From assembly GCA_046757165.1 (NCBI GenBank), contig JBHHXT010000135.1:1-12643 (forward strand): 12,643 nucleotides of DNA. The letters are read 5' to 3'. A program made the translations under genes and the position numbers. The number at the start of each line of letters is the position of its first letter. Positions within the stretch are counted from its first letter, which is position 1. Below the pieces are notes generated by a model. That model was not told the DNA's origin and did no database searches. It saw nothing but the letters and a program-made list of their open reading frames with translations. Origin of the DNA: a bacterium (GTDB lineage: Bacteria > Zhuqueibacterota > Zhuqueibacteria > Oceanimicrobiales > Oceanimicrobiaceae). Of the stretch, positions 608 through 12,505 are shown piece after piece.

Positions 608-1804
608 TCACTGATAAATGGGCACACCCGGAAAGAAGGCTCCCCAGGCAAACCAATACGCATTGTATGAGTCGGTTGGCTCGAGTTTCTGGCCTGTCCG
701 TGGACCGGAGACGCCCTGTCCCAAAATGTTCCAGGTCGTCCCTTCATTGTCTAGCAGGTCAAACGGATAGATATTGGGGGAATCTGTGCTGACGTCGAAG
801 GTTAACACCGTCCCGTCACTCGCGACTCGCGAATAGCTGATATAAAAGTGAGCAGACTTCATTCCTGCGACGACAACAGGTTGGCCGTCGACCTCATCAT
901 TGATCGCGCGGGCCCCATTTTCAAACAGGTTGAAGCGATAGGTTTTTGCACTCGGGGCAAAGCGGTCGGTGATAATGCCGTGCACCCTTTCTTTGAAAAA
1001 GAGTCGCGTGTCATAGGTCGTCAGTGGAAACAGTAGCGCCTCCACCTCTTTGTAATTGCCGTAGGGGAAAATATCATAATTGCGTTCAAACCCCGTATCA
1101 TTCGAAACGACCCTCGAAGCCGGGAACATCCTTTTCCAGCTCTCCCAGGTCGTTTCCAGCAAAAGGACGGTCTGCATCAATTCGCCGCGCAAGGTTCCAT
1201 TGACAGACCTGAGATACATCTGAGACCAGGCGCTGCGAGTGACTCTGTCATACACAATCAGGTTGTTGTTGTATAGAAACCCTGAAACGCCAAACTGCTG
1301 CCTGTCTTGATTCATGGTCACATCATCAACGGGAGGCGGGGCAGCCACCGCAGATCCGGTTAACGGACAGTAGGTCAGGGTAATCGGCGCACTGCCAAAC
1401 TTGTAATTGACGACCTCGTGCCAGTCAAGAATCTTTTCAGGGTAGGCGTAGGCTTGACCGTCTATGACCATGCCGTAGACCACGTCATCCCTCTCCATGA
1501 ACGAAGCGGCTTCTACAGCGACGAAATCCGGGTGATCGATGGATGGAATACAGTCCAGCCCGGTGGAACAGCCGCGCACGATGTCCGCCCGGTTCAAATC
1601 CCAGGTGCCTTTGAAGCCGCTGCTGTCGTTACTAGTAGAGGGCGGACCTCCAATCCCCCCATCGCCATCGTCGCCGCCACTGCCACCGTCATCTGCGAGG
1701 TCAGAATTGGCCTCGGAAGATGTGGGCCCATCACTGCTTGCGCACCCGAATACAAGCAGGCCAAAGAACAGGAAGAAAACGAAACACATTTTTTCTAACT
1801 TCAT
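608..1804 (-). CDS. DUF3179 domain-containing lipoprotein (Cys form of the DUF3179 (seleno)protein family)
   Basis: 398-aa ORF with a GGAG RBS, hydrophobic signal with lipobox-like LVFG-C, and a Gly/Asp-rich linker. DUF3179 motifs: DCIPSIDHPDF, AYPEKILDWHEVVN, TYCPLTGS, FGVSGFLYNNNLIVYDR..WSQ, AYWFAWGAFFP. Confidence 0.88.
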   Translation of the reverse strand: MKLEKMCFVFFLFFGLLVFGCASSDGPTSSEANSDLADDGGSGGDDGDGGIGGPPSTSNDSSGFKGTWDLNRADIVRGCSTGLDCIPSIDHPDFVAVEAASFMERDDVVYGMVIDGQAYAYPEKILDWHEVVNYKFGSAPITLTYCPLTGSAVAAPPPVDDVTMNQDRQQFGVSGFLYNNNLIVYDRVTRSAWSQMYLRSVNGTLRGELMQTVLLLETTWESWKRMFPASRVVSNDTGFERNYDIFPYGNYKEVEALLFPLTTYDTRLFFKERVHGIITDRFAPSAKTYRFNLFENGARAINDEVDGQPVVVAGMKSAHFYISYSRVASDGTVLTFDVSTDSPNIYPFDLLDNEGTTWNILGQGVSGPRTGQKLEPTDSYNAYWFAWGAFFPGVPIYQ

Positions 1805-1863
1805 ACTCAGTACTCCGCAAAATACCTAAACCTAAACCAAAACCACCGGCTCTTCCGGGAAAG

Positions 1864-1883
1864 GGGAAGTCTCCTGACTTCCC
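1864..1883. promoter_or_regulatory. Perfect palindrome, candidate operator in the divergent promoter region
   Basis: GGGAAGTC-TCCT-GACTTCCC (8-4-8), lying 2 nt upstream of the -35 of the putative ECF promoter. Confidence 0.45.
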
Positions 1884-1885
1884 AG

Positions 1886-1911
1886 GGAAGCAAACGACCG
1901 AAAATATTGTT
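1886..1911 (+). promoter_or_regulatory. Putative SigR/SigH-type ECF promoter for the 1970..2842 gene
   Basis: gGGAAG-caaacgaccgaaaatatt(18 nt)-GTT, about 58 nt upstream of the ATG and correctly oriented. Confidence 0.55.
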
Positions 1912-1969
1912 AAATGCTAAGAGCCGTACACCTCTTCACTTATCAAAATCCAAACCGAGTTAAACTACT

Positions 1970-2842
1970 ATGATGTCAAAAAGAATCACTCTAATCATCC
2001 TGCTGTTGCTCGTGACAACCCCTGACGTCCCCGCCTACGCCGGCGCCTGGACGCAGAAGCGCGGTGCGTTTTTTTACAAACTGGGTGTCCTGAGATTTGA
2101 ATCCACGTCGCAATATCTGTTGAACGGCGAGCGGGAATCCCTCTCCAACAAGGGTCGAGTCATCGACCTCAGTGTCTACCACTATCTCGAGTATGGCCTT
2201 TCCGATGAATTGACCGTGATCGCCTCGGTCCCCTTCAAGAAAGTCTCCTTTGACTGTGCCATTGAGGAGTGCGACAAATCCTCATCCGGTCTTGCAGATC
2301 TCTTCCTTGGCTTCCGCTACCGCCTGTCGAATCGCCGGTGGATCGTCTCTATCGAAAGCGGTTTGAAACTCGCTCCCGGCTATGAAACCGACGAAGACAA
2401 GCTGGATTCCGCGCCGCCGCTCGGGGACGGGCAGACAGATTTCGACCTGAGATTGCTGCTCGGCCATCCGCTGTTCAACTACCGGGGCTACCTGAACATC
2501 GATGCCGGGTTTCGCACCCGTTCCGGTGACCCGGTTGACGAGCTACCCTTCTCGCTTGAACTGGGCCTCAACCTGACCGATGACTATTTGCTCATCGGCC
2601 GACTGCACGGCGTTCGCAGCATCTCCGAAGACGCAGGGCAGAAGAACTTCCGCATTGTCAATGGTACGATTCAGAACTTCATCGGTACCGGTGCGGTAGA
2701 AGACTTTGTCAAAGGACAACTGCAGCTCATCTATAAACTCTCTGCCACCATCAGTCTGGCGTTTGAACTAGACCAGGTCCTCACCGGACGCAACACCTCG
2801 CACGCCACAACCGTCGGCGCTGGCCTCGTCATTGCCAAATAA
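1970..2842 (+). CDS. Putative outer-membrane beta-barrel protein (SphA/MetA-pathway 'transporter'-like), paralog A
   Basis: 290 aa with a Sec signal ending AYA-GAWT and alternating amphipathic strands. Motifs YLEYGLSDELTVIASVPF, GLADLFLGFRYRL, GLKLAPGY and LGDGQTD are shared with the 2851..3795 protein. Confidence 0.7.
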   Translation: MMSKRITLIILLLLVTTPDVPAYAGAWTQKRGAFFYKLGVLRFESTSQYLLNGERESLSNKGRVIDLSVYHYLEYGLSDELTVIASVPFKKVSFDCAIEECDKSSSGLADLFLGFRYRLSNRRWIVSIESGLKLAPGYETDEDKLDSAPPLGDGQTDFDLRLLLGHPLFNYRGYLNIDAGFRTRSGDPVDELPFSLELGLNLTDDYLLIGRLHGVRSISEDAGQKNFRIVNGTIQNFIGTGAVEDFVKGQLQLIYKLSATISLAFELDQVLTGRNTSHATTVGAGLVIAK

Positions 2843-2850
2843 TCTATTCG

Positions 2851-3795
2851 TCATCGCAACAGCGAGAACTTGTACGACACGCCCACGTTGAACACTTCCC
2901 CTGCCAGATAATTCTTGCCCGAAACACTCACCTGAACGGAGGTTTCGAAAGCCAAACCCCGGACGACTTGCAGGGAGATGCCGGGTTCCACATACAGGAC
3001 CTCCCTTTCCGACTCCGGGATGTCAAAAGGAGTGTCAAACGAATGGTTCTTGAAGGGGTCGCCATAGAGTCCGGACAGGGCGAACTTGACCACCAGATTC
3101 TCCAGCACATTGTAACCTGCTTCGCCGCGGAAGAAAAACTCGTTCCCGGGTTCTACACTCGAGGTTTCGAGGGCTGGTGCAAACCTGATTCTGTACCCGA
3201 GATCGAGATTCAAATAGCTCTGCACGGGCCACAAAGATTTGCCAAATTGCCCGATGAGCTCCAGGTCCCACTGCCCATCGCCCACCGGAATGATTTCAGC
3301 GTCCTTGTTGAGAAAGCCGGTCGGGGCCTTAGCCTGAACGCTCAGCGAGGCAACAAGAGGGGTTGCCAGGAAACGGTATTTGACTCCGAATCGCACGTCG
3401 CCAATATCGCTCGTCCCGGGCCGCTGAGGACTCGCCAGGTCGGTGAATTGGATGTCAAAGAAAGGAACCTGGAGATAGATCTCCAGAGGATCGAACAAGC
3501 CATAGTGGACGTCCACAAAAACGGCCGTCAGCTCACTTTCGCCATCAAAGGGGAAATCGACCCGCTGGCCTTCAGTGCAATTCACGCCCAGCGGGCACGG
3601 GGTGTTGCGGGAATAGTATTGATCACTTGTCTTTTGATAGAGCAGCGCGGATTTGATCCAGAGATGGCCTTTCTTCAGTGTCCAGGCTCCTGCATGCGCC
3701 GTCCCGGCAACCATGAATGTGCAGAAGACCAGAACCAGAACAATCGACGCGCGCCTAATGGGTTGCCTATCGTTGCTCGGGCCGCTCCTACTCAT
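2851..3795 (-). CDS. Putative outer-membrane beta-barrel protein (SphA/MetA-pathway 'transporter'-like), paralog B
   Basis: The ORF runs 2851..3840 (TTG). The ATG at 3795 is preferred because it overlaps the upstream stop (ATGAGTAG). It has a signal ending AHA-GAWT, motifs DIGDVRFGVKYRF, KAPTG and VGDGQWD, and a C-terminal beta-signal-like VGVSYKF. Confidence 0.72.
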   Translation of the reverse strand: MSRSGPSNDRQPIRRASIVLVLVFCTFMVAGTAHAGAWTLKKGHLWIKSALLYQKTSDQYYSRNTPCPLGVNCTEGQRVDFPFDGESELTAVFVDVHYGLFDPLEIYLQVPFFDIQFTDLASPQRPGTSDIGDVRFGVKYRFLATPLVASLSVQAKAPTGFLNKDAEIIPVGDGQWDLELIGQFGKSLWPVQSYLNLDLGYRIRFAPALETSSVEPGNEFFFRGEAGYNVLENLVVKFALSGLYGDPFKNHSFDTPFDIPESEREVLYVEPGISLQVVRGLAFETSVQVSVSGKNYLAGEVFNVGVSYKFSLLR

Positions 3796-4543
3796 TAGGC
3801 AGGATATCGAACGTGACCCGGGCGGGTTTACCTGTTTCAACGGTCACCTCTTTTTCCAATTTACCCAACACTTCATGCCAGGCTTGAATCTTGTACGTGC
3901 CCGCTGGAACATTTGATATGGCAAACTCACCGGCCTCGTTGGTCACGGCGTAGTAGGGATGGTCCATCACGGCAATGTAGGCGCTCATGTGGTCGTGGAC
4001 ATCGCACTTGTAGTAGTACATCCCAACTTTGTCAACCGTTTGACCGATCTTCTTCAGAAACTTTGGCTGAGCTTTGTTGAAAACGGTTTTCTTGGGATCG
4101 AGGCCGTCAAAGTACGCATGAACGTTGTGCAAGATGCCGTCGTTGTTCAGGATTTCCAGTTTCGTGCCCACCGGCACGGCCTGCACATGGGGGACATACC
4201 GACACTTGGTTTGACTCATCGTGACCTTTGCCTCGCCGGCCTTCACCCTACCTTTGGCACCGACAAGCGTGACGACCACATTCTTCAGCCCATGGTTAGC
4301 CTCAGACACAACGAATAGCTCAGAGAATTGAAACGCGCCACAGACCGCCGGATCTTTGGTGATGGTAATCTTGTCTCGTTCAGGATAGTCTTCCGGGAAC
4401 TTCACCACCCCGGTAATCGAGCCGGTATCGGCTGGCCGTGCAGGCGGATTGCTTCCGGCGCCCGCCCCGGTCATCGACATAAACCAAACCGCCACGAGCA
4501 GTGAGCAAACCGTAATGAGGATTGATTTCATGACTTTATTCAT
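3788..4543 (-). CDS. Secreted cupredoxin (amicyanin-like type-1 Cu site) / carboxypeptidase-regulatory-like domain protein
   Basis: 251 aa with a signal peptide, GSITGVV N-terminal strand, CRYVPHVQAV, NNDGILHNVH and YKCDVHDHM (H...C-x2-H-x2-M). The C-terminal TNEAGEFAISNVPAGTYKIQAWHE is typical of the CarboxypepD_reg fold. Confidence 0.8.
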   Translation of the reverse strand: MNKVMKSILITVCSLLVAVWFMSMTGAGAGSNPPARPADTGSITGVVKFPEDYPERDKITITKDPAVCGAFQFSELFVVSEANHGLKNVVVTLVGAKGRVKAGEAKVTMSQTKCRYVPHVQAVPVGTKLEILNNDGILHNVHAYFDGLDPKKTVFNKAQPKFLKKIGQTVDKVGMYYYKCDVHDHMSAYIAVMDHPYYAVTNEAGEFAISNVPAGTYKIQAWHEVLGKLEKEVTVETGKPARVTFDILPNE

Positions 4544-4565
4544 CGGTTAGATCTTCTCCCACGTT

Positions 4566-5579
4566 TTATTTGAACCGCCACTTATGCTTCTTCGGTGCAA
4601 AGGATTTCAGATATGCGTACAGGTCACTCACTTCCGATGCACTCATGTGATTGCCATAATCCGGACAAAAGAACGGGGGCGGGGGTGCGTTGGCATCGAG
4701 GGGCTGCGAGTAAACACGCTTCTGCAGCCGCGCCAGGAATTCCGCCTGGGAGTACTTGTTGGCAACCGTCTTCAAAGCTGGCATCATTTCGTCTGGCGCC
4801 ATGTTTGGATTTCTAACGCCCCCGCTGCCAAACTCTCCGTGACATGACCAGCAAGCAAACCGTTTGAAAACCAATTCTCCTCTTTCCTTGTCGATATTGC
4901 CGAGAAAAAAGTTCGTCCGGAACTCCCACTCCTGAGAGTCGTCGTTCTTTTGCCCCTGCTGTGTGTGCAGGTAGGCCGACAGCGCTCTCACTCCCTCTTG
5001 CGGGATGTGAAAATTGGGCATGAATGTCCCGGGTTTGAAGGCTTCCGGGTCTCGCAGCCAGGTCTGTTCCCACTCTTCAGTCTTCCTCACCCCAACCCAG
5101 GTCAGATCCGGCCCAATAAACCGTCCATCCGAACCAACACGATGACATCCAAGACAGCCATAATCATCAACAAGCAACTTGCCTTTTTCGGTAAGCGGAA
5201 GCTCTTTGCTCAAGATTTCTTCAGTTTTCAATTCTTTTTTCATCGCGGTCAAATAGCCGACGACTGAATCGAGCTGCCTCGGCGGAAAGTCAAAAGTCGG
5301 CATCTTGGTGCCGGGTTTGACAGCCTGTGGGTCGGCCAGCCACTTTCGCAACCATTCTTCAGACCGCCGGTTGCTGATAAAATTCAAAATCGGGCCCACC
5401 GTTCCGCCACGTTCTCCAATCGTATGACAACTGGTGCATTGATACGTCTTGACAATCTCGCTGTTTAGAAAGGCTTCTTGCGGGGTTCCGCTCCACTCGT
5501 CGTTCTCCTCTCCTGCGAACAAAAACGACGACCCAACAATGCCCGCGTAAACAAGGTATAGAACCCAATATCGTTTCAT
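4566..5579 (-). CDS. Triheme class I cytochrome c
   Basis: 337 aa with an N-terminal signal/anchor and three CxxCH motifs (CTSCH, CLGCH, CWSCH). Domains 1 and 2 repeat GP.L..(I/V)..R...EW...WL.DP.A.KPGT.MP.F. Confidence 0.92.
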   Translation of the reverse strand: MKRYWVLYLVYAGIVGSSFLFAGEENDEWSGTPQEAFLNSEIVKTYQCTSCHTIGERGGTVGPILNFISNRRSEEWLRKWLADPQAVKPGTKMPTFDFPPRQLDSVVGYLTAMKKELKTEEILSKELPLTEKGKLLVDDYGCLGCHRVGSDGRFIGPDLTWVGVRKTEEWEQTWLRDPEAFKPGTFMPNFHIPQEGVRALSAYLHTQQGQKNDDSQEWEFRTNFFLGNIDKERGELVFKRFACWSCHGEFGSGGVRNPNMAPDEMMPALKTVANKYSQAEFLARLQKRVYSQPLDANAPPPPFFCPDYGNHMSASEVSDLYAYLKSFAPKKHKWRFK

Positions 5580-5627
5580 AGTAATCGTGATGTTTTCTAT
5601 CCTTCCTGCTTATTAGGGGAATAATTC

Positions 5628-5680
5628 ATAGAACACGGCGCGGGCGGCAACGAGGCGCACAACCCACGCCGCAGTTCTAT
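5628..5680 (-). other. Intercistronic long stem-loop between the two cytochrome genes
   Basis: On the - strand, ATAGAAC-T-GCGGCGTGGG...CCCGCGCCGT-GTTCTAT forms a ~17-bp stem using G-U pairs and one bulge. No U-tract follows. Confidence 0.6.
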
Positions 5681-5694
5681 CTGAGCATCAGGGA

Positions 5695-6333
5695 CTACTT
5701 CTTGCCCATCTCCATCATCATCTTCTTCATCATTTCCGGAATTTCTCCAACGGATACTTTGTCCTCATTGCTGAGTGTGGCAATGTAAGCTGTCAGAGCC
5801 CGGGCTTCTTTGCTCTTCTTGTCAAGTGGCTGAGCAGCCATGAACATCATGATGCAGTTGTTGGCCATATCGGTAATGTCGATGACCTGGTCGTTTGGAA
5901 CTTTGTACTTCGGGAAGGTTGCTGCCGCGCCGACCAGCGTTGGAATGGGGAGCTTGTAGGGTTTGCCCGTAGCCTCGCTTGGCATCGGAGTCTCCGCCTC
6001 GCCGCCGGTGGTGCCACCACCAGGATGACAGCTCGCACAAGCCTGACCATTGGTGCCCAATGCTTTGGTGTCGTTAAACAGCTTTTCCCCCCACGCAATG
6101 GTCTCTTTCTGAGTCATCATCAGATGCTTCGGTAACTTCTGCATCATCGCTTCCTTGCTGGCCATGAATTTGTCCATGTTCTTCATGGCCATGTTCTTCA
6201 TCATCATCTTCTGTTCCTGAGTCAGTGGCTTCGGCGCGTGCTTCTTTTCCTGGGCAACCAGATTGCTCATGGTAAGAGCAACGGCACAAACCAGGATGGC
6301 TAGCAATACCGATGTTCCTCTCACTCTTTTCAT
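5695..6333 (-). CDS. Met-rich periplasmic monoheme cytochrome c of SoxA/TsdA-type fold (probable His/Cys heme)
   Basis: The ORF runs 5695..6345. The ATG at 6333 is preferred because GGAGG lies 6 nt upstream. It has a signal peptide, GEKLF...NGQACASCH, LVGAAATFPKY, DITDMANNC and ALTAYIATLS, resembling the SoxA/TsdA heme domain, with Met-rich patches at both ends. Confidence 0.8.
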   Translation of the reverse strand: MKRVRGTSVLLAILVCAVALTMSNLVAQEKKHAPKPLTQEQKMMMKNMAMKNMDKFMASKEAMMQKLPKHLMMTQKETIAWGEKLFNDTKALGTNGQACASCHPGGGTTGGEAETPMPSEATGKPYKLPIPTLVGAAATFPKYKVPNDQVIDITDMANNCIMMFMAAQPLDKKSKEARALTAYIATLSNEDKVSVGEIPEMMKKMMMEMGKK

Positions 6334-6459
6334 AGTGACCTCCATAAATAAGTGAATAGTAATAGTAATTAAGAGAGTAACAGCTTCCTGATAATTCTTG
6401 AATTAGTTAGTAGACATCAGGCAAGAGAGTGGATAATATGCAAAACGGTTACCCCCTGG

Positions 6460-6485
6460 AACAAACTAAGTTTTTGAAATATTCC
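6460..6485 (-). promoter_or_regulatory. Putative SigR/SigH-type ECF promoter of the cytochrome operon
   Basis: tgGGAAT-atttcaaaaacttagttt(18 nt)-GTTcc is an exact match to the SigR consensus GGAAT-N18-GTT. It lies immediately downstream of the anti-sigma terminator. Confidence 0.75.
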
Positions 6486-6500
6486 CACCGGCATTGTGGC

Positions 6501-6538
6501 AAAACAAGAAAGCCCTTGCGGGACGCACCGCAGGGGCT
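6501..6538 (-). terminator. Rho-independent terminator of the sigma/anti-sigma operon
   Basis: On the - strand, an AGCCCCTGCGG-TGCGTC-CCGCAAGGGCT stem (1 mismatch) is followed by TTCTTGTTTT. Confidence 0.8.
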
Positions 6539-6593
6539 CGTCTTGAACAGACTGTCGCTTCCAATCTGCCGTGTCTTAACTAACTAAGTTATT

Positions 6594-7250
6594 TTACAAC
6601 AACTTATACTTATTGACGCTGATATATCTCGGGTTTTCGAATACCACGCCGAACAAGGTTGCCTTCCTCTTCAGGAGTTCACGATTGTATTGAATTTCCT
6701 TGCCTGTCCCGTCTTGTAGAATGGTCCAGACGGCACCATCTTCAGCCCGCAAACCCGGCCGGTGAATGACCTGATGGCGTACGGGGACGCCGTGATACTT
6801 CAAGAACAAATCACAGTCCAAACAGATAATCTCGCCACGCAGTTGTGCTGAATGTACAGAAAGTCCAGCGGAAGTCGATCGTCCCGCGTCCCCGCTCGAT
6901 GTCATGACGCCAAAGGTCGGCAACAGGATCGAGAAAGCCAGGACGGCAAGGGCGAAAGACGTGGCCACAGGACGGTACTCAAAAAGAGACTGGATGAGCT
7001 GCCAGAAAGTCGGCAGGTCCCCGCCGCGGGCGATTTGTCGCTCGATACGCCGTCTCAAATGGGCCGGAGCCTTGGCAATCTGCAATCTCTCCGTTACCAA
7101 CTCCTTTAGCTTGCATTCAGCTTCATAGCGCTGCAATAACTCGGGCGATTCTTGCAGCAGCTTTTCAACCTCCATCCTGTCCTTTTCATTGAGTTCGCCA
7201 TCGATGTAGCCGGTGATGAGATAATCACATCTGTCGCGCTCTTCCTTCAT
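6594..7250 (-). CDS. Transmembrane anti-sigma factor (degenerate zf-HC2/RsrA-like N-terminal domain, one TM helix, external CxxC domain)
   Basis: Directly downstream of the ECF sigma, with a GGAGG RBS. LITGYIDGEL...VEKLLQESPEL...APAHLRRRI matches the anti-sigma domain pattern. TM segment ATSFALAVLAFSILLPTFGV; C-terminal LRGEIICLDC. Confidence 0.82.
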   Translation of the reverse strand: MKEERDRCDYLITGYIDGELNEKDRMEVEKLLQESPELLQRYEAECKLKELVTERLQIAKAPAHLRRRIERQIARGGDLPTFWQLIQSLFEYRPVATSFALAVLAFSILLPTFGVMTSSGDAGRSTSAGLSVHSAQLRGEIICLDCDLFLKYHGVPVRHQVIHRPGLRAEDGAVWTILQDGTGKEIQYNRELLKRKATLFGVVFENPRYISVNKYKLL

Positions 7251-7290
7251 TTGAAATCTTTACCTCCAGAAAATAGGTCCCACAAATACT

Positions 7291-7890
7291 TCAGTTTGCT
7301 CTACTGATGAATCCGCCCCGGAGGGCATAGTCCTTGAGATGGATTTGCAATTGTTTCCTGCCGCGAGAAAGTCTCGACATCACCGTTCCCAACGGACAGC
7401 CGATTATTTTGGCGATCTGTTTATAAGAGAAATTTTCAATGTCAGCCAATAAGACCACCATTCTAAACTCGTCAGGCAACTGCTCCAAAGCGGTTCTTAT
7501 TTCATCGTCGAATAGACTCTCGTACTCCAGTTGGCGGAAATTTTCAATCACGTGATTGTGCACATCACGTTTATCCTCAATATAAACATGCTTGACCTTC
7601 TCCAATTCAACCTGATGAGGCAGACTTAGCTTCTTGCGGTATTGGTTAATGTAGGTGTTGGTCAAAATCTTGAAGATCCACGCCTTGAAATTTGTATCCT
7701 TCTTGAACTTGTCAAAAAACCGATAAGCGCGTATGCAAACATCTTGCAGCAGGTCTTCGGCATCGAGCTCATTGCGTGTCATCCTCAACGCCGTATTATA
7801 CAGAGAATCCATGTGCACCATGGCCAACTCTTGAAACTCCTGGTTTCTTCGCTTCAAAGAATCGGAGTTTTCCCTGGACTCATCCTGCAT
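7291..7890 (-). CDS. sigH: ECF RNA polymerase sigma-70 factor, SigH/SigR-like (ECF12 type)
   Basis: Region 2 SLYNTALRMTRNELDAEDLLQD..RAY..F..F...TNFKAWIFKILTNTYINQYRKK and region 4 ALEQLPDEFRMVVLLADIENFSYKQIA..GCPLGTVMSRLSRGR closely resemble actinobacterial SigR/SigH. The start is either ATG 7890 or TTG 7893. Confidence 0.92.
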   Translation of the reverse strand: MQDESRENSDSLKRRNQEFQELAMVHMDSLYNTALRMTRNELDAEDLLQDVCIRAYRFFDKFKKDTNFKAWIFKILTNTYINQYRKKLSLPHQVELEKVKHVYIEDKRDVHNHVIENFRQLEYESLFDDEIRTALEQLPDEFRMVVLLADIENFSYKQIAKIIGCPLGTVMSRLSRGRKQLQIHLKDYALRGGFISRAN

Positions 7891-7956
7891 CAAGCTCTTT
7901 AGTTTAATTGGACTTACATTACGAGTGACTATTCGATTGGAATCTCAAATCTATGC

Positions 7957-7982
7957 AACAGGCTGGCGTTATGATTTATTCC
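7957..7982 (-). promoter_or_regulatory. Putative autoregulatory SigR/SigH-type promoter of the sigma/anti-sigma operon
   Basis: tgGGAAT-aaatcataacgccagcct(18 nt)-GTTgc is an exact GGAAT-N18-GTT match in the intergenic region upstream of the sigma gene. Confidence 0.78.
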
Positions 7983-7988
7983 CAAAAA

Positions 7989-8504
7989 TCACCGCAGGGA
8001 TTCATCTTTCCAGCGGACGACCCGCCACTTTTGATCCAGCCCACTCTGCTTGAACGTAAAGATGGCGGTTCCGGTCACCAGGAAGTTGATGTCCGAACTG
8101 AAGAGATTGAGGTTGAAGCGCAGAAATCTTCTTTCGAGCTCAGCGTGGCTTTCCTGAAATAGAATGTCCCAGTGCAAATCTACAACGTCAAACTGCCGGA
8201 AGAGCCGGCCCGTGGTTTTGAGGTCCACGTCCCGCTCCCACGTAACCGGTTCGAGATTGGCATCCAGAAATTCGAAGACAAATGATTCGTCCAGAACATC
8301 GCTGTACAATAACGAATCTTTGAAGGTATAGGCGATCCTGAAATTCTGCAGGACTTCTTCGGGGCTGGTCTGCTCTGTTATGACATTGGTCAGGTCGATG
8401 CGCTCATCAAGCTCAGGGGCAAATGGATTGAAACACGCAGGCAGCAGCAGCAAAACCACCGGGAATGTCCACCTTGTCAGAAGGGATGATAGAGGCCCTC
8501 TCAT
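7989..8504 (-). CDS. Hypothetical lipoprotein
   Basis: The ORF runs 7989..8567. The start is placed at ATG 8504 because the longer version runs through the tonB terminator. It has a lipobox-like LLLPA-CFNPFAP and SPEEVLQNFRIAY...WRVVRWKDES, an NTF2-like pattern (inference). Confidence 0.7.
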   Translation of the reverse strand: MRGPLSSLLTRWTFPVVLLLLPACFNPFAPELDERIDLTNVITEQTSPEEVLQNFRIAYTFKDSLLYSDVLDESFVFEFLDANLEPVTWERDVDLKTTGRLFRQFDVVDLHWDILFQESHAELERRFLRFNLNLFSSDINFLVTGTAIFTFKQSGLDQKWRVVRWKDESLR

Positions 8505-8546
8505 GGCGTTGCGAACGACCATTGTAACTCGGGGAAGACTCGACAT

Positions 8547-8580
8547 AAAAAAAGCGGCGCTTGACAAAGCACCGCCTTTT
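8547..8580 (-). terminator. Rho-independent terminator after tonB (possibly bidirectional)
   Basis: On the - strand, AAAA-GGCGGTGCTT-TGTC-AAGCGCCGCT-TTTTTT, about 17 nt after the tonB stop. Confidence 0.85.
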
Positions 8581-8597
8581 CTTGCAAATCCCTGGTA

Positions 8598-9236
8598 TTA
8601 CTTCAATCTAAAAATCACGGGAATAGCAACCCACACCTTTACGGGCTTATCTCGTTGCAGTGCCGGCTTCCATTTCACGCTCCTGATAGCCTTGACCGCC
8701 GCCTGGTCGCAACCACTGTGTCCCAGTGATTTAATGACCCGAGTGTCGATGACTTTGCCTTTCTCTGAAACCCAAACATATACAACCACGCGGCCTTCTA
8801 TGCCTGCCTTGCGCGCGATTTCAGGGTATTTCAAAGCTCTTTGAATCGCTCTGAACCCGCCAATCGGAGACGGCGCTTCATCATAGGGTACAAAGATGTT
8901 CATACCATCATCGTCCTCCGGCGGAGGCGGTGGAGGCGGGATGTCAGACAGGTCGAGCTCAGTCGTCTCAATCGTCAAATCATCCGGAATATCCTCACTC
9001 TCGGAAGGAATGGGAATGGATGGTTTTGGTGGAGGGGGCGGCCTCTTCACCTGTTCGGTGGGTGGGATGTCTGCGACCTCGATCTGTATTTCTTTGGTCG
9101 TGGTTTCCACCGCCTCCAGATCGATGACACGCAGCAACTGGAAGACGATGATCATCAGACCCAACGACAGGACAAGACCGAGCTCCAGCACTTTTTTGTA
9201 CCTGAGCTTCAGGTTAGCGTCCGGGTTCTTCCTCAT
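8598..9236 (-). CDS. tonB: Energy transducer TonB
   Basis: N-terminal TM helix, Pro-rich linker (PPPPPKP, PPPPPPPE), and TonB C-terminal domain LKYPEIARKAGIEGRVVV...WKPALQRDKPVKVWVAIPVIFRLK. Confidence 0.95.
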   Translation of the reverse strand: MRKNPDANLKLRYKKVLELGLVLSLGLMIIVFQLLRVIDLEAVETTTKEIQIEVADIPPTEQVKRPPPPPKPSIPIPSESEDIPDDLTIETTELDLSDIPPPPPPPEDDDGMNIFVPYDEAPSPIGGFRAIQRALKYPEIARKAGIEGRVVVYVWVSEKGKVIDTRVIKSLGHSGCDQAAVKAIRSVKWKPALQRDKPVKVWVAIPVIFRLK

Positions 9237-9245
9237 AATGACACC

Positions 9246-9668
9246 TCAAAAAGCTGGTTTAGCTGAGTAATTGACATTGAGTGCACCAGGTGCATCCGAT
9301 TCGCGTAACTTCTCCTGGACATCCGTGACGATCCCCATTTCGGTCCCTTTGTCGATCTTCATGGAGACCAGTTTGAGGGGATGTTGCGGGTCCCTCGCTT
9401 TGGCGAGCATGATGTTCGGAATCTGACTGAGATTGACAAAGCGGTCATCGATAGAAACCGCTCCCTTCTTGTTCACCCACAGATAAGCGACATCCCGTTT
9501 CCCGGCAAGCTTCTCGATTTTTCTGGCGTTGGGCAAATTGACTGGAAGACCAGAAAACTCCTTAAAGACCGACGACACCATGAAGAAGATGAGCAACAGA
9601 AATACGATGTCCGGCAACGACGAGAGCGGTATTCCAGGTTTAACTTTCTGTTTTCCTTCGAATTTCAA
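9246..9668 (-). CDS. exbD: Biopolymer transporter ExbD/TolR family protein
   Basis: SSLPDIVFLLLIFFMVSS TM motif with the conserved Asp; TTG start with a GGAGG RBS. Confidence 0.93.
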   Translation of the reverse strand: MKFEGKQKVKPGIPLSSLPDIVFLLLIFFMVSSVFKEFSGLPVNLPNARKIEKLAGKRDVAYLWVNKKGAVSIDDRFVNLSQIPNIMLAKARDPQHPLKLVSMKIDKGTEMGIVTDVQEKLRESDAPGALNVNYSAKPAF

Positions 9669-9711
9669 TTCTATTTCCTCCGCTTAGACTTTGAGAAAGC
9701 CAAAGCCCTAC

Positions 9712-10113
9712 CTACTTTTCGGGCTCGGCAATCGAGATGCGGGTTGCGTTGGCGACCTTGAGCTCATCAAGCGCCTGGACATATGTCTCATACCTGGTCT
9801 GACGGTCTGTTTTAACCGAGATGATGAGATTTGGATTCTGCATGATTTGTTCCCGGATCAAGCGGCTGATGTCACTCAACGCAACCGGTTCGCCATCAAT
9901 CGCAACTTCGCCATCTGCGTTGATCAAAAGATTGGTGATGTTCTTACTTCTGACCTCCGTCTGCTCCCCCTTCGCCGGCAGGGTCAAACCGATTCCTCTG
10001 TCCACGTCGATGGTTGTTGTTACCAGGAAAAAGATGAGCAAGAGGAAGGCAATATCGGCCAGCGAGGCCATGGGGATTTCGCTTTCACGGCTTTTCTTTT
10101 TTTCAACTAACAT
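9712..10113 (-). CDS. exbD: Biopolymer transporter ExbD/TolR family protein
   Basis: Motifs IPMASLADIAFLLLIFFLVTTT and IISVKTDRQTRYETYVQALDELK. Confidence 0.94.
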   Translation of the reverse strand: MLVEKKKSRESEIPMASLADIAFLLLIFFLVTTTIDVDRGIGLTLPAKGEQTEVRSKNITNLLINADGEVAIDGEPVALSDISRLIREQIMQNPNLIISVKTDRQTRYETYVQALDELKVANATRISIAEPEK

Positions 10114-10909: not shown

Positions 10910-12505
10910 TCACTCTGGGGAACGCCCAACCGTCAAGTGAGCAATCTTGGCCGCCTCCGAAAAATGCTGCAAAGCCTGCTTGACCTGCACGTCCGCCGCA
11001 GCCTCCACTTGACGATATTGGCGCGAACTCCAGAGGTGGCGTGCAATCTCGCTCTTGAGCCTGCGCTTCACAAACGCCAGGTCCCCATCGAGCTCTGCTT
11101 TCGATACATCAAGCCCCCTCTGCTGGACCAGTGCCAGAAACTCCTCGATAATCTCAGAGTCGACGAAAAAAGTCTTCCGGAAGCGTTCGAAATCTCGCCC
11201 GAGTTTTGGATGCCTGGAGGCATAGTCCGAGCCATAATCAAAAAACGCCTGCTCTTGAATCAACTTAATGGTGGACACAGCAAGCATCGGCGACTTGATG
11301 ATGATATCCGGAGAAATGCCCCCCCCACCGAAGACCTTGCGGCCAGCATGGGTTGTGTAAATAGGTTTGCCGGCTCGATCATCGGCATCGACGTTGGGGT
11401 CATAATCATCGTAGCCATCCGCAATGTAGGTTTCCAGGCCGCCTTGGTACGAGCGCTGAATCAGCCGCCCGCTGGGCGTGTAGTAGCGCGCTATGGTGAC
11501 GCGTATCGCCGAGCCATCTTTTAGAGCCACCTGATGCTGGACCAGTCCTTTCCCGAACGAGGTTTCTCCAACAATCAAGCCGCGGTCCCAATCCTGCAGG
11601 GCGCCCGCCACGATCTCAGAGGCGCTAGCCGAGCCGTGGTTGATCAGCACGATTAGAGGCAGGCGCGGGAAGGCAGGCTCACCCGAAGAGTAGTAATCCT
11701 CGTTTGAGCTTCTGATCCGGCCCCGCGTATAGACGATCCGCTTCTCCCCCGGCAGGAAATAGTCAACCATCTCCACGGCCTGGTCCAGATAGCCGCCGGA
11801 ATTTCCTCTCAGATCCAGAACCAACCGTTTCATGCCTTTTTGCTGCAATTGTCGCAGGGCTGCTTCGAACTCATCATTGGTGGTTCTGGCAAAACGTCCA
11901 ACTCTGATATAGCCGGTCTGGGTATCGAGTAAGAAAGCAGCCGTGACGCTATGAATCGGAATCTTGTCACGTACAATGGTCACATCAAAGGGGGCTTCGA
12001 TGCCCGGGCGCAGGATTTGAATAGTCACCCGGGTTCCCTTCGGGCCGAGCAGCTTTTCCCGTACGCCGTCCTCCGTGAGACCATAAATGGCCTCCCCTTC
12101 GATTTCAACAATTCTGTCACCGGAGCGCAAGCCCACGCGCTCTGAGGGGGAATCTGCAATCGGTGAGACAATCACCGGATACTTATCGTGCACAATGAAT
12201 TCGATCCCGATCCCTTCAAACTCACCATCAAATTGCTCGGTGATTTCCTGGATGCGATCCTTCGAAATAAAGATCGAGTGCGGGTCGAGCTCTTTGAGCA
12301 AACCATGGATGGCGCCGTCGACCAATTTTTCGGCATCCACTTCTTCAACATAGAGCTTGTCGACGGTTTGCAGGACTTCGATCACGCGCTGTACCTGCTG
12401 GTAGAGATTGCCGGCCGTGGCGAACAAATCAAACCTGAACGCCAGGGCCGCCAGGACTAGTGAAAACAGGGTGAGCCCAAGGATATTCTTCTTAAAGGTC
12501 GTCAT
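10910..12505 (-). CDS. ctpA: S41A carboxyl-terminal processing protease (PDZ + peptidase S41)
   Basis: 531 aa with an AGAGGAG RBS and N-terminal anchor. Motifs LDPHS, PDZ FEGIGI, LVLDLRGNSGG, catalytic SASASEIVAGALQD, SFGKGLVQ and ARYYTPSGRLIQ. Confidence 0.95.
   Translation of the reverse strand: MTTFKKNILGLTLFSLVLAALAFRFDLFATAGNLYQQVQRVIEVLQTVDKLYVEEVDAEKLVDGAIHGLLKELDPHSIFISKDRIQEITEQFDGEFEGIGIEFIVHDKYPVIVSPIADSPSERVGLRSGDRIVEIEGEAIYGLTEDGVREKLLGPKGTRVTIQILRPGIEAPFDVTIVRDKIPIHSVTAAFLLDTQTGYIRVGRFARTTNDEFEAALRQLQQKGMKRLVLDLRGNSGGYLDQAVEMVDYFLPGEKRIVYTRGRIRSSNEDYYSSGEPAFPRLPLIVLINHGSASASEIVAGALQDWDRGLIVGETSFGKGLVQHQVALKDGSAIRVTIARYYTPSGRLIQRSYQGGLETYIADGYDDYDPNVDADDRAGKPIYTTHAGRKVFGGGGISPDIIIKSPMLAVSTIKLIQEQAFFDYGSDYASRHPKLGRDFERFRKTFFVDSEIIEEFLALVQQRGLDVSKAELDGDLAFVKRRLKSEIARHLWSSRQYRQVEAAADVQVKQALQHFSEAAKIAHLTVGRSPE

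Follow-up and report, generated by a model that had tools for sequence, protein, structure and literature searches.

We analysed contig JBHHXT010000135.1 of assembly GCA_046757165.1, a stretch of 12,643 nucleotides referred to at its full length as the window, from the KSB1/Zhuqueibacterota, a group described as consisting mostly of facultative anaerobes (PMC11683472). Between positions 608 and 7982 it encodes a SigR/SigH-like extracytoplasmic function (ECF) sigma factor and a transmembrane anti-sigma next to exported heme, copper and Cys proteins. As judged from conservation across genomes, the conserved unit is made up of three genes, encoding a Met-rich monoheme cytochrome, a triheme cytochrome and a type-1 Cu cupredoxin. 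In the window's family, the sigma gene, the cytochrome operon and thiol-repair genes are, to judge from their promoters, very probably co-regulated. We propose, at a little under even odds (roughly 45%), that the three-gene core serves a thiol-stress regulon of SigR/SigH type as its periplasmic arm: the Met-rich cytochrome would capture an oxidant that reacts with thiols, and would be reset by the triheme cytochrome and the cupredoxin. The feature is real and conserved, and it resembles kinds already known, ECF12 regulons and SoxA-fold cytochromes.

A three-gene redox core

All eight genes of the window were confirmed as real by open reading frames (ORFs) and family matches. A previous sequence-only reading of this DNA had treated the eight as one unit, a view that our comparison does not support. 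In a profile scan of species-representative genomes, in which several contigs are short, the next cytochrome was found at 44 of 46 monoheme loci (one miss is due to a contig end), its third domain at 39 and the cupredoxin at 37, whereas the anti-sigma (7), barrel B (5), barrel C (3) and the DUF3179 gene (6) are rare. Since the core is near-constant and the other genes are not, the unit comprises three genes, to which the barrels, DUF3179 and the neighbouring sigma pair have been added in particular lineages, as an arrangement at the level of the family. By their record labels, the 46 loci span about ten phyla, including KSB1, Acidobacteriota, Myxococcota, Gemmatimonadota, Calditrichota, Ignavibacteriota, Zixiibacteriota, Krumholzibacteriota, Fidelibacterota and Pseudomonadota; the four loci of the latter have a diheme partner and lack the cupredoxin. 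The same core is carried by 41 metagenome loci. All eight genes occur together in 4 loci of a set made up of 15 from the window's family and one from its order, and the monoheme was found in 14 of 20 same-family genomes (72–87% identity; 70–82% across genera). A search of the open-access literature by title and opening of the abstract returned no description of the operon, in agreement with the sequence-only reading, which had not recognised the combination; subscription papers and supplements could change that. Passages from PMC8388095, PMC9230427, PMC8999054 and PMC11683472 contributed no information about the module.

Two loci have stop codons within core genes (hereafter, L numbers denote compared loci, P numbers compared proteins and G000 the window's genome). 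In genome G021 (L036:5579-6559), TGA stands at a conserved Trp of the monoheme, the triheme is missing and a TAA occurs in the cupredoxin alignment, so that this locus may be decaying, and the cupredoxin at L081:11674-12300 has TGA at a conserved Trp position.

The first core gene (5695..6333, minus strand; residues are counted from the ORF start at 6345) encodes an exported monoheme cytochrome c of SoxA/TsdA fold. It matches the SoxA/TsdA domain PF21342 (54.8 bits), has a single CxxCH (residues 103–107) within an N-terminal heme-binding stretch that matches PF03150 (residues 81–144), and its structure model (pLDDT 85.8) finds TsdA, followed by SoxA, as best Foldseek matches. From conserved positions, His/Cys ligation of the heme is predicted: the putative distal ligand, Cys164, aligns with the heme-ligating Cys of these proteins and is invariant (55/55). 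Four residues before it, at the position of the catalytic Arg of SoxA and TsdA, all 55 sequences have Met (Met160), although this Arg (Arg119) is described as invariant in both families (PMC4423706); TsdA Arg109 is matched by Pro150, and the single CxxCH contrasts with the two hemes per chain of TsdA. Also invariant are Lys146, Met167 and Lys148 (55/55), the last of which aligns with the second SoxA Arg. Cys164 is surrounded by invariant Met, Asn and Lys residues. With 11.6% Met, the protein ranks first among the 7602 ORFs of at least 150 amino acids in the genome (mean 1.8%).

Does this cytochrome belong to a Sox or TsdA system? Against the SoxA family TIGR04484 it reaches 51.5 bits (cut-off 110). 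SoxY was found in neither G000 nor 14 other genomes of the family (0/15), SoxZ was not found in G000, and SoxB scored 127 bits there against a cut-off of 550, in line with the earlier remark that the window has no soxBXYZ genes. Given the Met in place of the catalytic Arg, the low TIGR04484 score and the missing SoxY and SoxZ, we rejected membership of Sox or TsdA. In databases, the family is nonetheless labelled 'thiosulfate dehydrogenase', and claims of sulfur oxidation drawn from that label would be unsafe because the catalytic Arg is absent. Compared with SoxAX and TsdA/TsdB, the core shares the monoheme fold, the Cys position and a partner with His/Met hemes; it differs in that each chain has one domain, Met replaces Arg, a helical extension rich in Met is present, the partner carries a second predicted His/Cys heme and a cupredoxin is added, with SoxYZ not found.

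Two further features concern the dosage and assembly of the monoheme. A strong predicted RNA hairpin lies 3′ of its gene (5636..5672, minus strand) and could act as a stabiliser or partial terminator; at this place the hairpin is stronger than the one after the triheme in 13/13 loci of the window's clade, nine of them with a clear T tail, and the monoheme is therefore predicted to be made in excess. The gene is tandemly doubled in 11 of the 46 loci, where the upstream copies form one supported clade and mostly remain Met-rich. The divergence of the tandem copies, together with related two-domain fusions (P0181, P0207), suggests that the monoheme is dimeric. These fusions are part of a broader set of Arg-less SoxA-fold cytochromes (also P0217, P0224 and P0232), some of which have two or three domains and little Met. 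Selenocysteine was considered as a heme ligand, and no in-frame stops were found at the positions of Cys164 or of Cys305 of the triheme in loci L001–L153.

The second gene (4566..5579, minus strand) encodes an exported triheme cytochrome c with predicted His/Met93, His/Met187 and His/Cys305 ligation, the distal ligands being conserved in 42/42, 41/41 and 39/40 sequences. An axial-ligand switch is supported by two paralogous domains of G000, which carry Met where the triheme has Cys305. The triheme protein passes the cut-off of the SoxX model TIGR04485 (75.3 versus 61), as does an unrelated pentaheme paralogue (95.2). The third gene (3788..4543, minus strand) encodes an exported cupredoxin fused to a beta-sandwich domain; its score against PF00127 is 21.4 bits (cut-off 21.2), and each residue of the type-1 Cu ligand set (His ... 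Cys-x2-His-x2-Met; His139, Cys180, His183 and Met186) is present in 37/37 sequences. Its paralogues sit in multiheme and Rieske/cytochrome b clusters. In G000, Rieske/cytochrome b, cytochrome bd-like and multiheme clusters are found on contigs C34, C45, C74, C112 and C313 (L169, L177–L180), with a paralogous cupredoxin in most of them and an NAD(P)H oxidoreductase in two. The genome has 40 ORFs with at least two CxxCH motifs.

Promoter motif, sigma factor and anti-sigma

A SigR/SigH-type motif, GGAAT/G-N18-GTT, is found upstream of the sigma gene (7957..7982, minus strand; predicted autoregulation), of the Met-rich monoheme gene (6460..6485, minus strand) and, in its GGAAG form, of barrel B (1886..1911, plus strand). 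Among 5000 dinucleotide-shuffled versions of each intergenic region, and with a pattern picked after the sites had been seen, the motif arose by chance in 0.2%, 1.0% and 0.4% of cases, respectively. In a scan of the 6.09-Mb genome (99.98% complete by markers) with a weight matrix trained on 23 sites, all from relatives, the cytochrome site came out on top with 27.0 bits, the sigma site took fourth place and the barrel-B site fell under the listing threshold of 14 bits; 11 sites reached at least 18 bits, whereas three block-shuffled controls yielded 0, 4 and 2. The sequence-only reading, which had noticed the cluster beside the ECF pair and its three motifs, is corroborated by conservation: the motif precedes the sigma gene at 9/9 loci carrying this sigma, the monoheme gene at 13/16 loci and barrel B at 6/6 loci, in the GGAAG form every time (the window being counted in each). 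Of the three monoheme loci without it, one has a GAAAT variant and one has short upstream DNA, and the motif is retained in 5/7 loci where the cytochrome operon lies distant from the sigma gene. A terminator-like hairpin (6510..6539, minus strand; −24.0 kcal/mol, followed by a T-rich tail) marks the boundary between the sigma/anti-sigma unit and the cytochrome promoter. The spacing of the motif equals that of SigH promoters reported from C. glutamicum, such as GGAATA-N17-GTT at trxB1 (PMC10012870).

Which other genes might respond to this promoter? Genome-wide, we obtained 51 matrix matches and 108 pattern sites, and six downstream genes of G000 were checked for conservation of the motif in 22 relatives each, with the G000 gene included in the counts. 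The strict pattern precedes a flavoprotein gene leading an operon with radical SAM and ArsM-like genes (13/16), a YceI gene (7/18) and a gene for an exported 153-aa protein (6/11). The relaxed pattern precedes a GT2 glycosyltransferase gene (14/18; a thioredoxin gene follows directly 3′ in 17 of these 18 loci), clpC at a fixed distance (10/20) and a TrxR/YpdA-like flavoprotein gene (6/17, or 6/8 close orthologues with upstream DNA). Among background ORFs, the strict pattern occurs at 54/4784 and the relaxed one at 134/4784, yet since this background contains spurious ORFs and related genomes are not independent, the counts do not amount to formal tests. A second thioredoxin gene of G000 has a motif site of its own. 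The earlier suggestion that the sigma had been 'rewired' away from cytoplasmic thiol homeostasis is thus not supported, because the motif still precedes the canonical thiol genes, which have been joined by an exported arm. DUF3179, a possible regulon member in that reading, is a weak candidate, with no motif upstream in the window and one at 2/7 loci overall. The flavoprotein of the ArsM-like operon (L095:1476-6117, contig C219 of G000) is unassigned and adjoins the radical SAM gene in 15/16 loci; this operon, which includes the ArsM-like methyltransferase, is possibly devoted to organoarsenic chemistry.

The sigma factor (7291..7890, minus strand; Pfam Sigma70_r2 and r4_2) has SigH_actino, TIGR02947, as its best NCBIfam match (196 bits, under the cut-off of 251.55). 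The motif is absent upstream of the four paralogous sigma genes of the genome, which favours, without proving, that the window's sigma reads it. The anti-sigma (6594..7250, minus strand) has at its N-terminus an anti-sigma domain that lacks the HxxxCxxC zinc ligands, then a single hydrophobic helix and finally a predicted periplasmic OB-fold domain with Cys143, Cys146 and His163, which contains the C-terminal CLDC. The external Cys sensor postulated by the sequence-only reading recurs throughout the family, in that 43/43 homologues combine the hydrophobic helix with a C-terminal C-x-D-C followed by two or more His; the cytoplasmic HxxxCxxC is kept in 32 of them and lost in 11, including the window's. 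In the structure model, which is of low confidence (pLDDT 65), the N-terminal domain resembles RsiW/MucA and the C-terminal domain an OB fold (best matches at Z 6–7.5). For the latter, a feature search of the Atlas gave no usable match, and a structure search led to unnamed clusters, one of them partly DUF5818.

The system resembles the ECF12 pairs SigR-RsrA and SigH-RshA in its sigma factor, in an anti-sigma at position +1, in the GGAAT-N18-GTT motif and in its predicted thioredoxin and clpC targets. By contrast, the soluble zinc-binding (HxxxCxxC) anti-sigma is here replaced by a transmembrane one without that motif and with a periplasmic Cys/His OB-fold domain, and the regulon adds exported cytochromes, a cupredoxin and barrels. 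The supplement of PMC7826278 lists ECF12 members for Bacteroidetes, Chlorobi, Ignavibacteriae and Calditrichaeota and notes that the anti-sigmas of subgroup ECF12s19 are transmembrane proteins, so that membrane attachment is not new in itself. The present system carries the SigR/SigH paradigm into a Gram-negative lineage, where the Cys/His sensor is periplasmic and the effector arm exported, and it provides a natural series of anti-sigmas, having both sensors or the external one only, in which a change of compartment can be studied.

Two genes close by deserve mention in this context. An S41 tail-specific protease gene (10910..12505, minus strand) lies in a conserved neighbourhood upstream, also seen at L025, L028, L029 and L032, and a second S41 gene of the genome (contig C407) has the promoter pattern. 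The C-terminus of the anti-sigma (6597) is hydrophobic, with a final Leu in at least 90% of the 43 homologues, and the window's S41 protease could cut it. Adjoining the sigma promoter upstream is the gene of a lipoprotein without Pfam family (7989..8567, minus strand), present in 8/8 relatives with the sigma (65–82% identity), which comes after tonB-exbD-exbD-exbB.

Function of the core and rival explanations

What is the physiological role of the core? That it represents a periplasmic arm is likely, since exported redox genes here follow a motif that is also found at thioredoxin genes and clpC. In the mechanism we propose, the sigma would be released when an oxidant or soft electrophile attacks the Cys143/Cys146/His site on the periplasmic side of the anti-sigma. 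It would then drive transcription of its own gene, the cytochrome operon, the barrel-B gene and the genes for cytoplasmic thiol repair. The monoheme, in excess and probably as a dimer, would take up the oxidant (candidates being hypohalous acid, chloramine, or sulfane/polythionate species) on its Met cluster and the heme-bound Cys164. This modification would lift the Cys off the iron and raise the heme potential, as proposed for TsdA/SoxA, and electrons from Rieske/cytochrome b complexes, delivered via the cupredoxin and the His/Met hemes, would restore the thiolate. Such a cycle would be TsdA chemistry in the reductive direction, with a substrate other than tetrathionate/thiosulfate. TsdA is reported to be bidirectional, and modification and dissociation of its Cys have been proposed to raise the heme potential strongly (PMC6879331); for these two reasons, we favour an oxidant trap over its rivals. 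Gene content, the conservation of the three genes, of the promoter and of individual residues, and the loss of the SoxA/TsdA Arg are read directly from the DNA; the oxidant-trap chemistry is the uncertain part.

A number of observations weigh against this proposal. His/Cys hemes at rest are reported at −160 to −400 mV or lower and His/Met hemes at +200 to +380 mV (PMC6879331), which favours electron flow in the opposite direction. In the tandem loci, the downstream monoheme copies have fallen to 4–7% Met (8–9% in two) and gained Lys and Arg. The motif precedes the monoheme in 14/46 loci overall, and beyond the window's clade only at L058, L060 and L063 of this set (it also stands upstream of the monoheme in five metagenome loci whose sequence is more distant or whose taxon is unknown); being rare outside the clade, it implies that the core is elsewhere mostly under other control. 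The same promoters could also be recognised by the four paralogous sigmas, whose DNA-binding regions are similar. Most neighbours of distant core loci are unrelated housekeeping genes, so that the stress-related neighbours described below are a selected minority. Throughout, conservation was counted in related genomes, which are not independent samples, and the counts are no formal tests. Finally, G000 msrP and msrA lack the motif, unlike in the MrpX system. The latter, SigF/NrsF-MrpX-YedY (MsrP) of Azospira suillum, is a defence against reactive chlorine in which an ECF-controlled, Met-rich periplasmic protein is described as a scavenger of HOCl (PMC4436054). It is also the analogy on which our proposal draws, since in both systems a periplasmic protein rich in Met lies behind an ECF promoter and may serve as an oxidant sink. 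Here, however, the Met-rich protein is a folded c-type cytochrome, the sigma is SigH-like and a heme chain takes the place of MsrP. The sequence-only reading had found no msrPQ in the window; the genome holds msrP elsewhere, unlinked to the core. An MsrP homologue is linked to the core at 1/87 loci searched (L077).

Some neighbours of the core elsewhere nevertheless offer clues to its substrate. Homologues of motif-led G000 genes adjoin it at L082 (radical SAM and ArsM-like), at L272 (radical SAM) and at L048, L069 and L074 (YpdA-like); L074 also has AhpD-like, SelL-like and MerTP genes, and L075 has selA/selB. At L060, one of the distant loci with the motif, the core is divergent from genes for arsenite-oxidase-like large and Rieske subunits and two di-heme peroxidases (4104–9758), in the idrABP1P2 layout of iodate reductase clusters that are reported to produce hypoiodous acid (PMC8692401). 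At L256, genes of a Rieske/cytochrome b complex come next after the core, together with an NAD(P)H oxidoreductase.

The closest folds of the monoheme, TsdA and SoxA, invite the converse explanation, namely a SoxAX/TsdAB-like oxidative chain in which the monoheme and heme 3 of the triheme would oxidise sulfide, polysulfide or a small thiol, or form protein disulfides, and pass electrons to the His/Met hemes, the cupredoxin and a heme-copper oxidase. The resting potentials run that way, Lys146 and Lys148 are invariant (the latter at a SoxA Arg position), G000 has three heme-copper oxidase subunit I genes, DsbB was not found in this genome, and a rhodanese gene lies near the core at L255. Yet the invariant Arg of TsdA and SoxA is Met in 55/55 sequences, SoxY and SoxZ were not found and SoxB stays under its cut-off, the SoxX model is passed by an unrelated pentaheme protein too, and an energy-yielding pathway is not obviously expected behind a promoter of thioredoxin and clpC genes; we regard this chain as improbable. 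The related idea of a replacement for the Dsb system is weakened by the presence of VKOR in the genome. Less probable again is a module for thiophilic metals or metalloids, whose anti-sigma would sense Cu(I), As(III) or Hg(II) through its Cys/His OB fold, whose Met-rich cytochrome would bind the metal and whose heme/Cu chain would change its oxidation state. Met clusters are typical Cu(I) sites, the weak OB-fold matches of the anti-sigma domain include CusF, an ArsM-like methyltransferase belongs to a motif-led operon, and ArsS (L249), arsenosugar-type genes (L043, L082), MerTP (L074), a Cu-type P-ATPase (L081) and CusF-SCO (L085) occur near the core elsewhere. However, neither a Cu exporter nor a Cus gene was found among the motif-led genes annotated (a subset of the candidates), the CusF match is no better than those to many other OB folds, and a low-potential His/Cys heme would be a poor oxidant of Cu(I).

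We rate lowest a role as an electron relay or redox sensor of low potential and without catalysis, whose induction by stress in the window's family would be incidental. In the N-terminal domain of R. sulfidophilum SoxA, which is non-catalytic, Met likewise stands four residues ahead of the Cys, there are many Arg-less SoxA-fold domains, including the low-Met fusions, cupredoxin and multiheme paralogues occur in Rieske/cytochrome b clusters, and some His/Cys hemes have been proposed as sensors (PMC6879331). Such a role would, however, leave unexplained the high identity across genera, the invariant Met, Asn and Lys residues, the extreme Met content and the hairpin that points to excess synthesis. 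A likeness of another kind is that to di-heme cytochrome c peroxidases and MauG, given the PF03150 stretch of the monoheme. In these enzymes, electrons run from a cupredoxin over a His/Met heme to a low-potential heme. The monoheme, in contrast, has a single heme, a distal Cys and no second domain, and fold matches are at E 0.1 or worse.

Returning to the oxidant trap, its boldest version, which we consider unlikely, would be a new periplasmic chemistry and have a split, Arg-less SoxA-fold heme-thiolate protein lined with Met detoxify hypohalous acids or reactive sulfur in about ten uncultured phyla and be recharged by a triheme/blue-copper chain; in one KSB1 family, it would be switched on by a SigR-type anti-sigma whose Cys sensor now lies in the periplasm instead of the cytoplasm. 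If the oxidant-trap reading is true, this represents a new use of the SoxA fold. The analysis also gives a conserved cytochrome family a testable function and a regulatory handle.

Accessory genes

Barrel B (1970..2842, plus strand) is an outer-membrane barrel resembling Phenol_MetA_deg (SphA/COG4313) channels, matching Atlas structures at TM 0.81–0.90. The second outer-membrane barrel, C (2851..3795, minus strand), is 27% identical to it and predicted to be co-transcribed with the cupredoxin, whose stop its start overlaps. The DUF3179 lipoprotein (608..1804, minus strand; PF11376, 270.8 bits) has a Cys146 that aligns with an in-frame TGA, a selenocysteine position, in two homologues (L048 and L101), and the family is listed as a UxxC/T selenoprotein (PMC9312934). 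The L101 homologue (4284–5348) is G000's own paralogue, on contig C98, and adjoins a barrel-B paralogue with a degenerate promoter motif. Lastly, nested inverted repeats lie 3′ of the DUF3179 gene at about 315–455, with a palindromic pair at about 355–424 inside a second inverted repeat. Presumably, they constitute a small non-autonomous repeat element.

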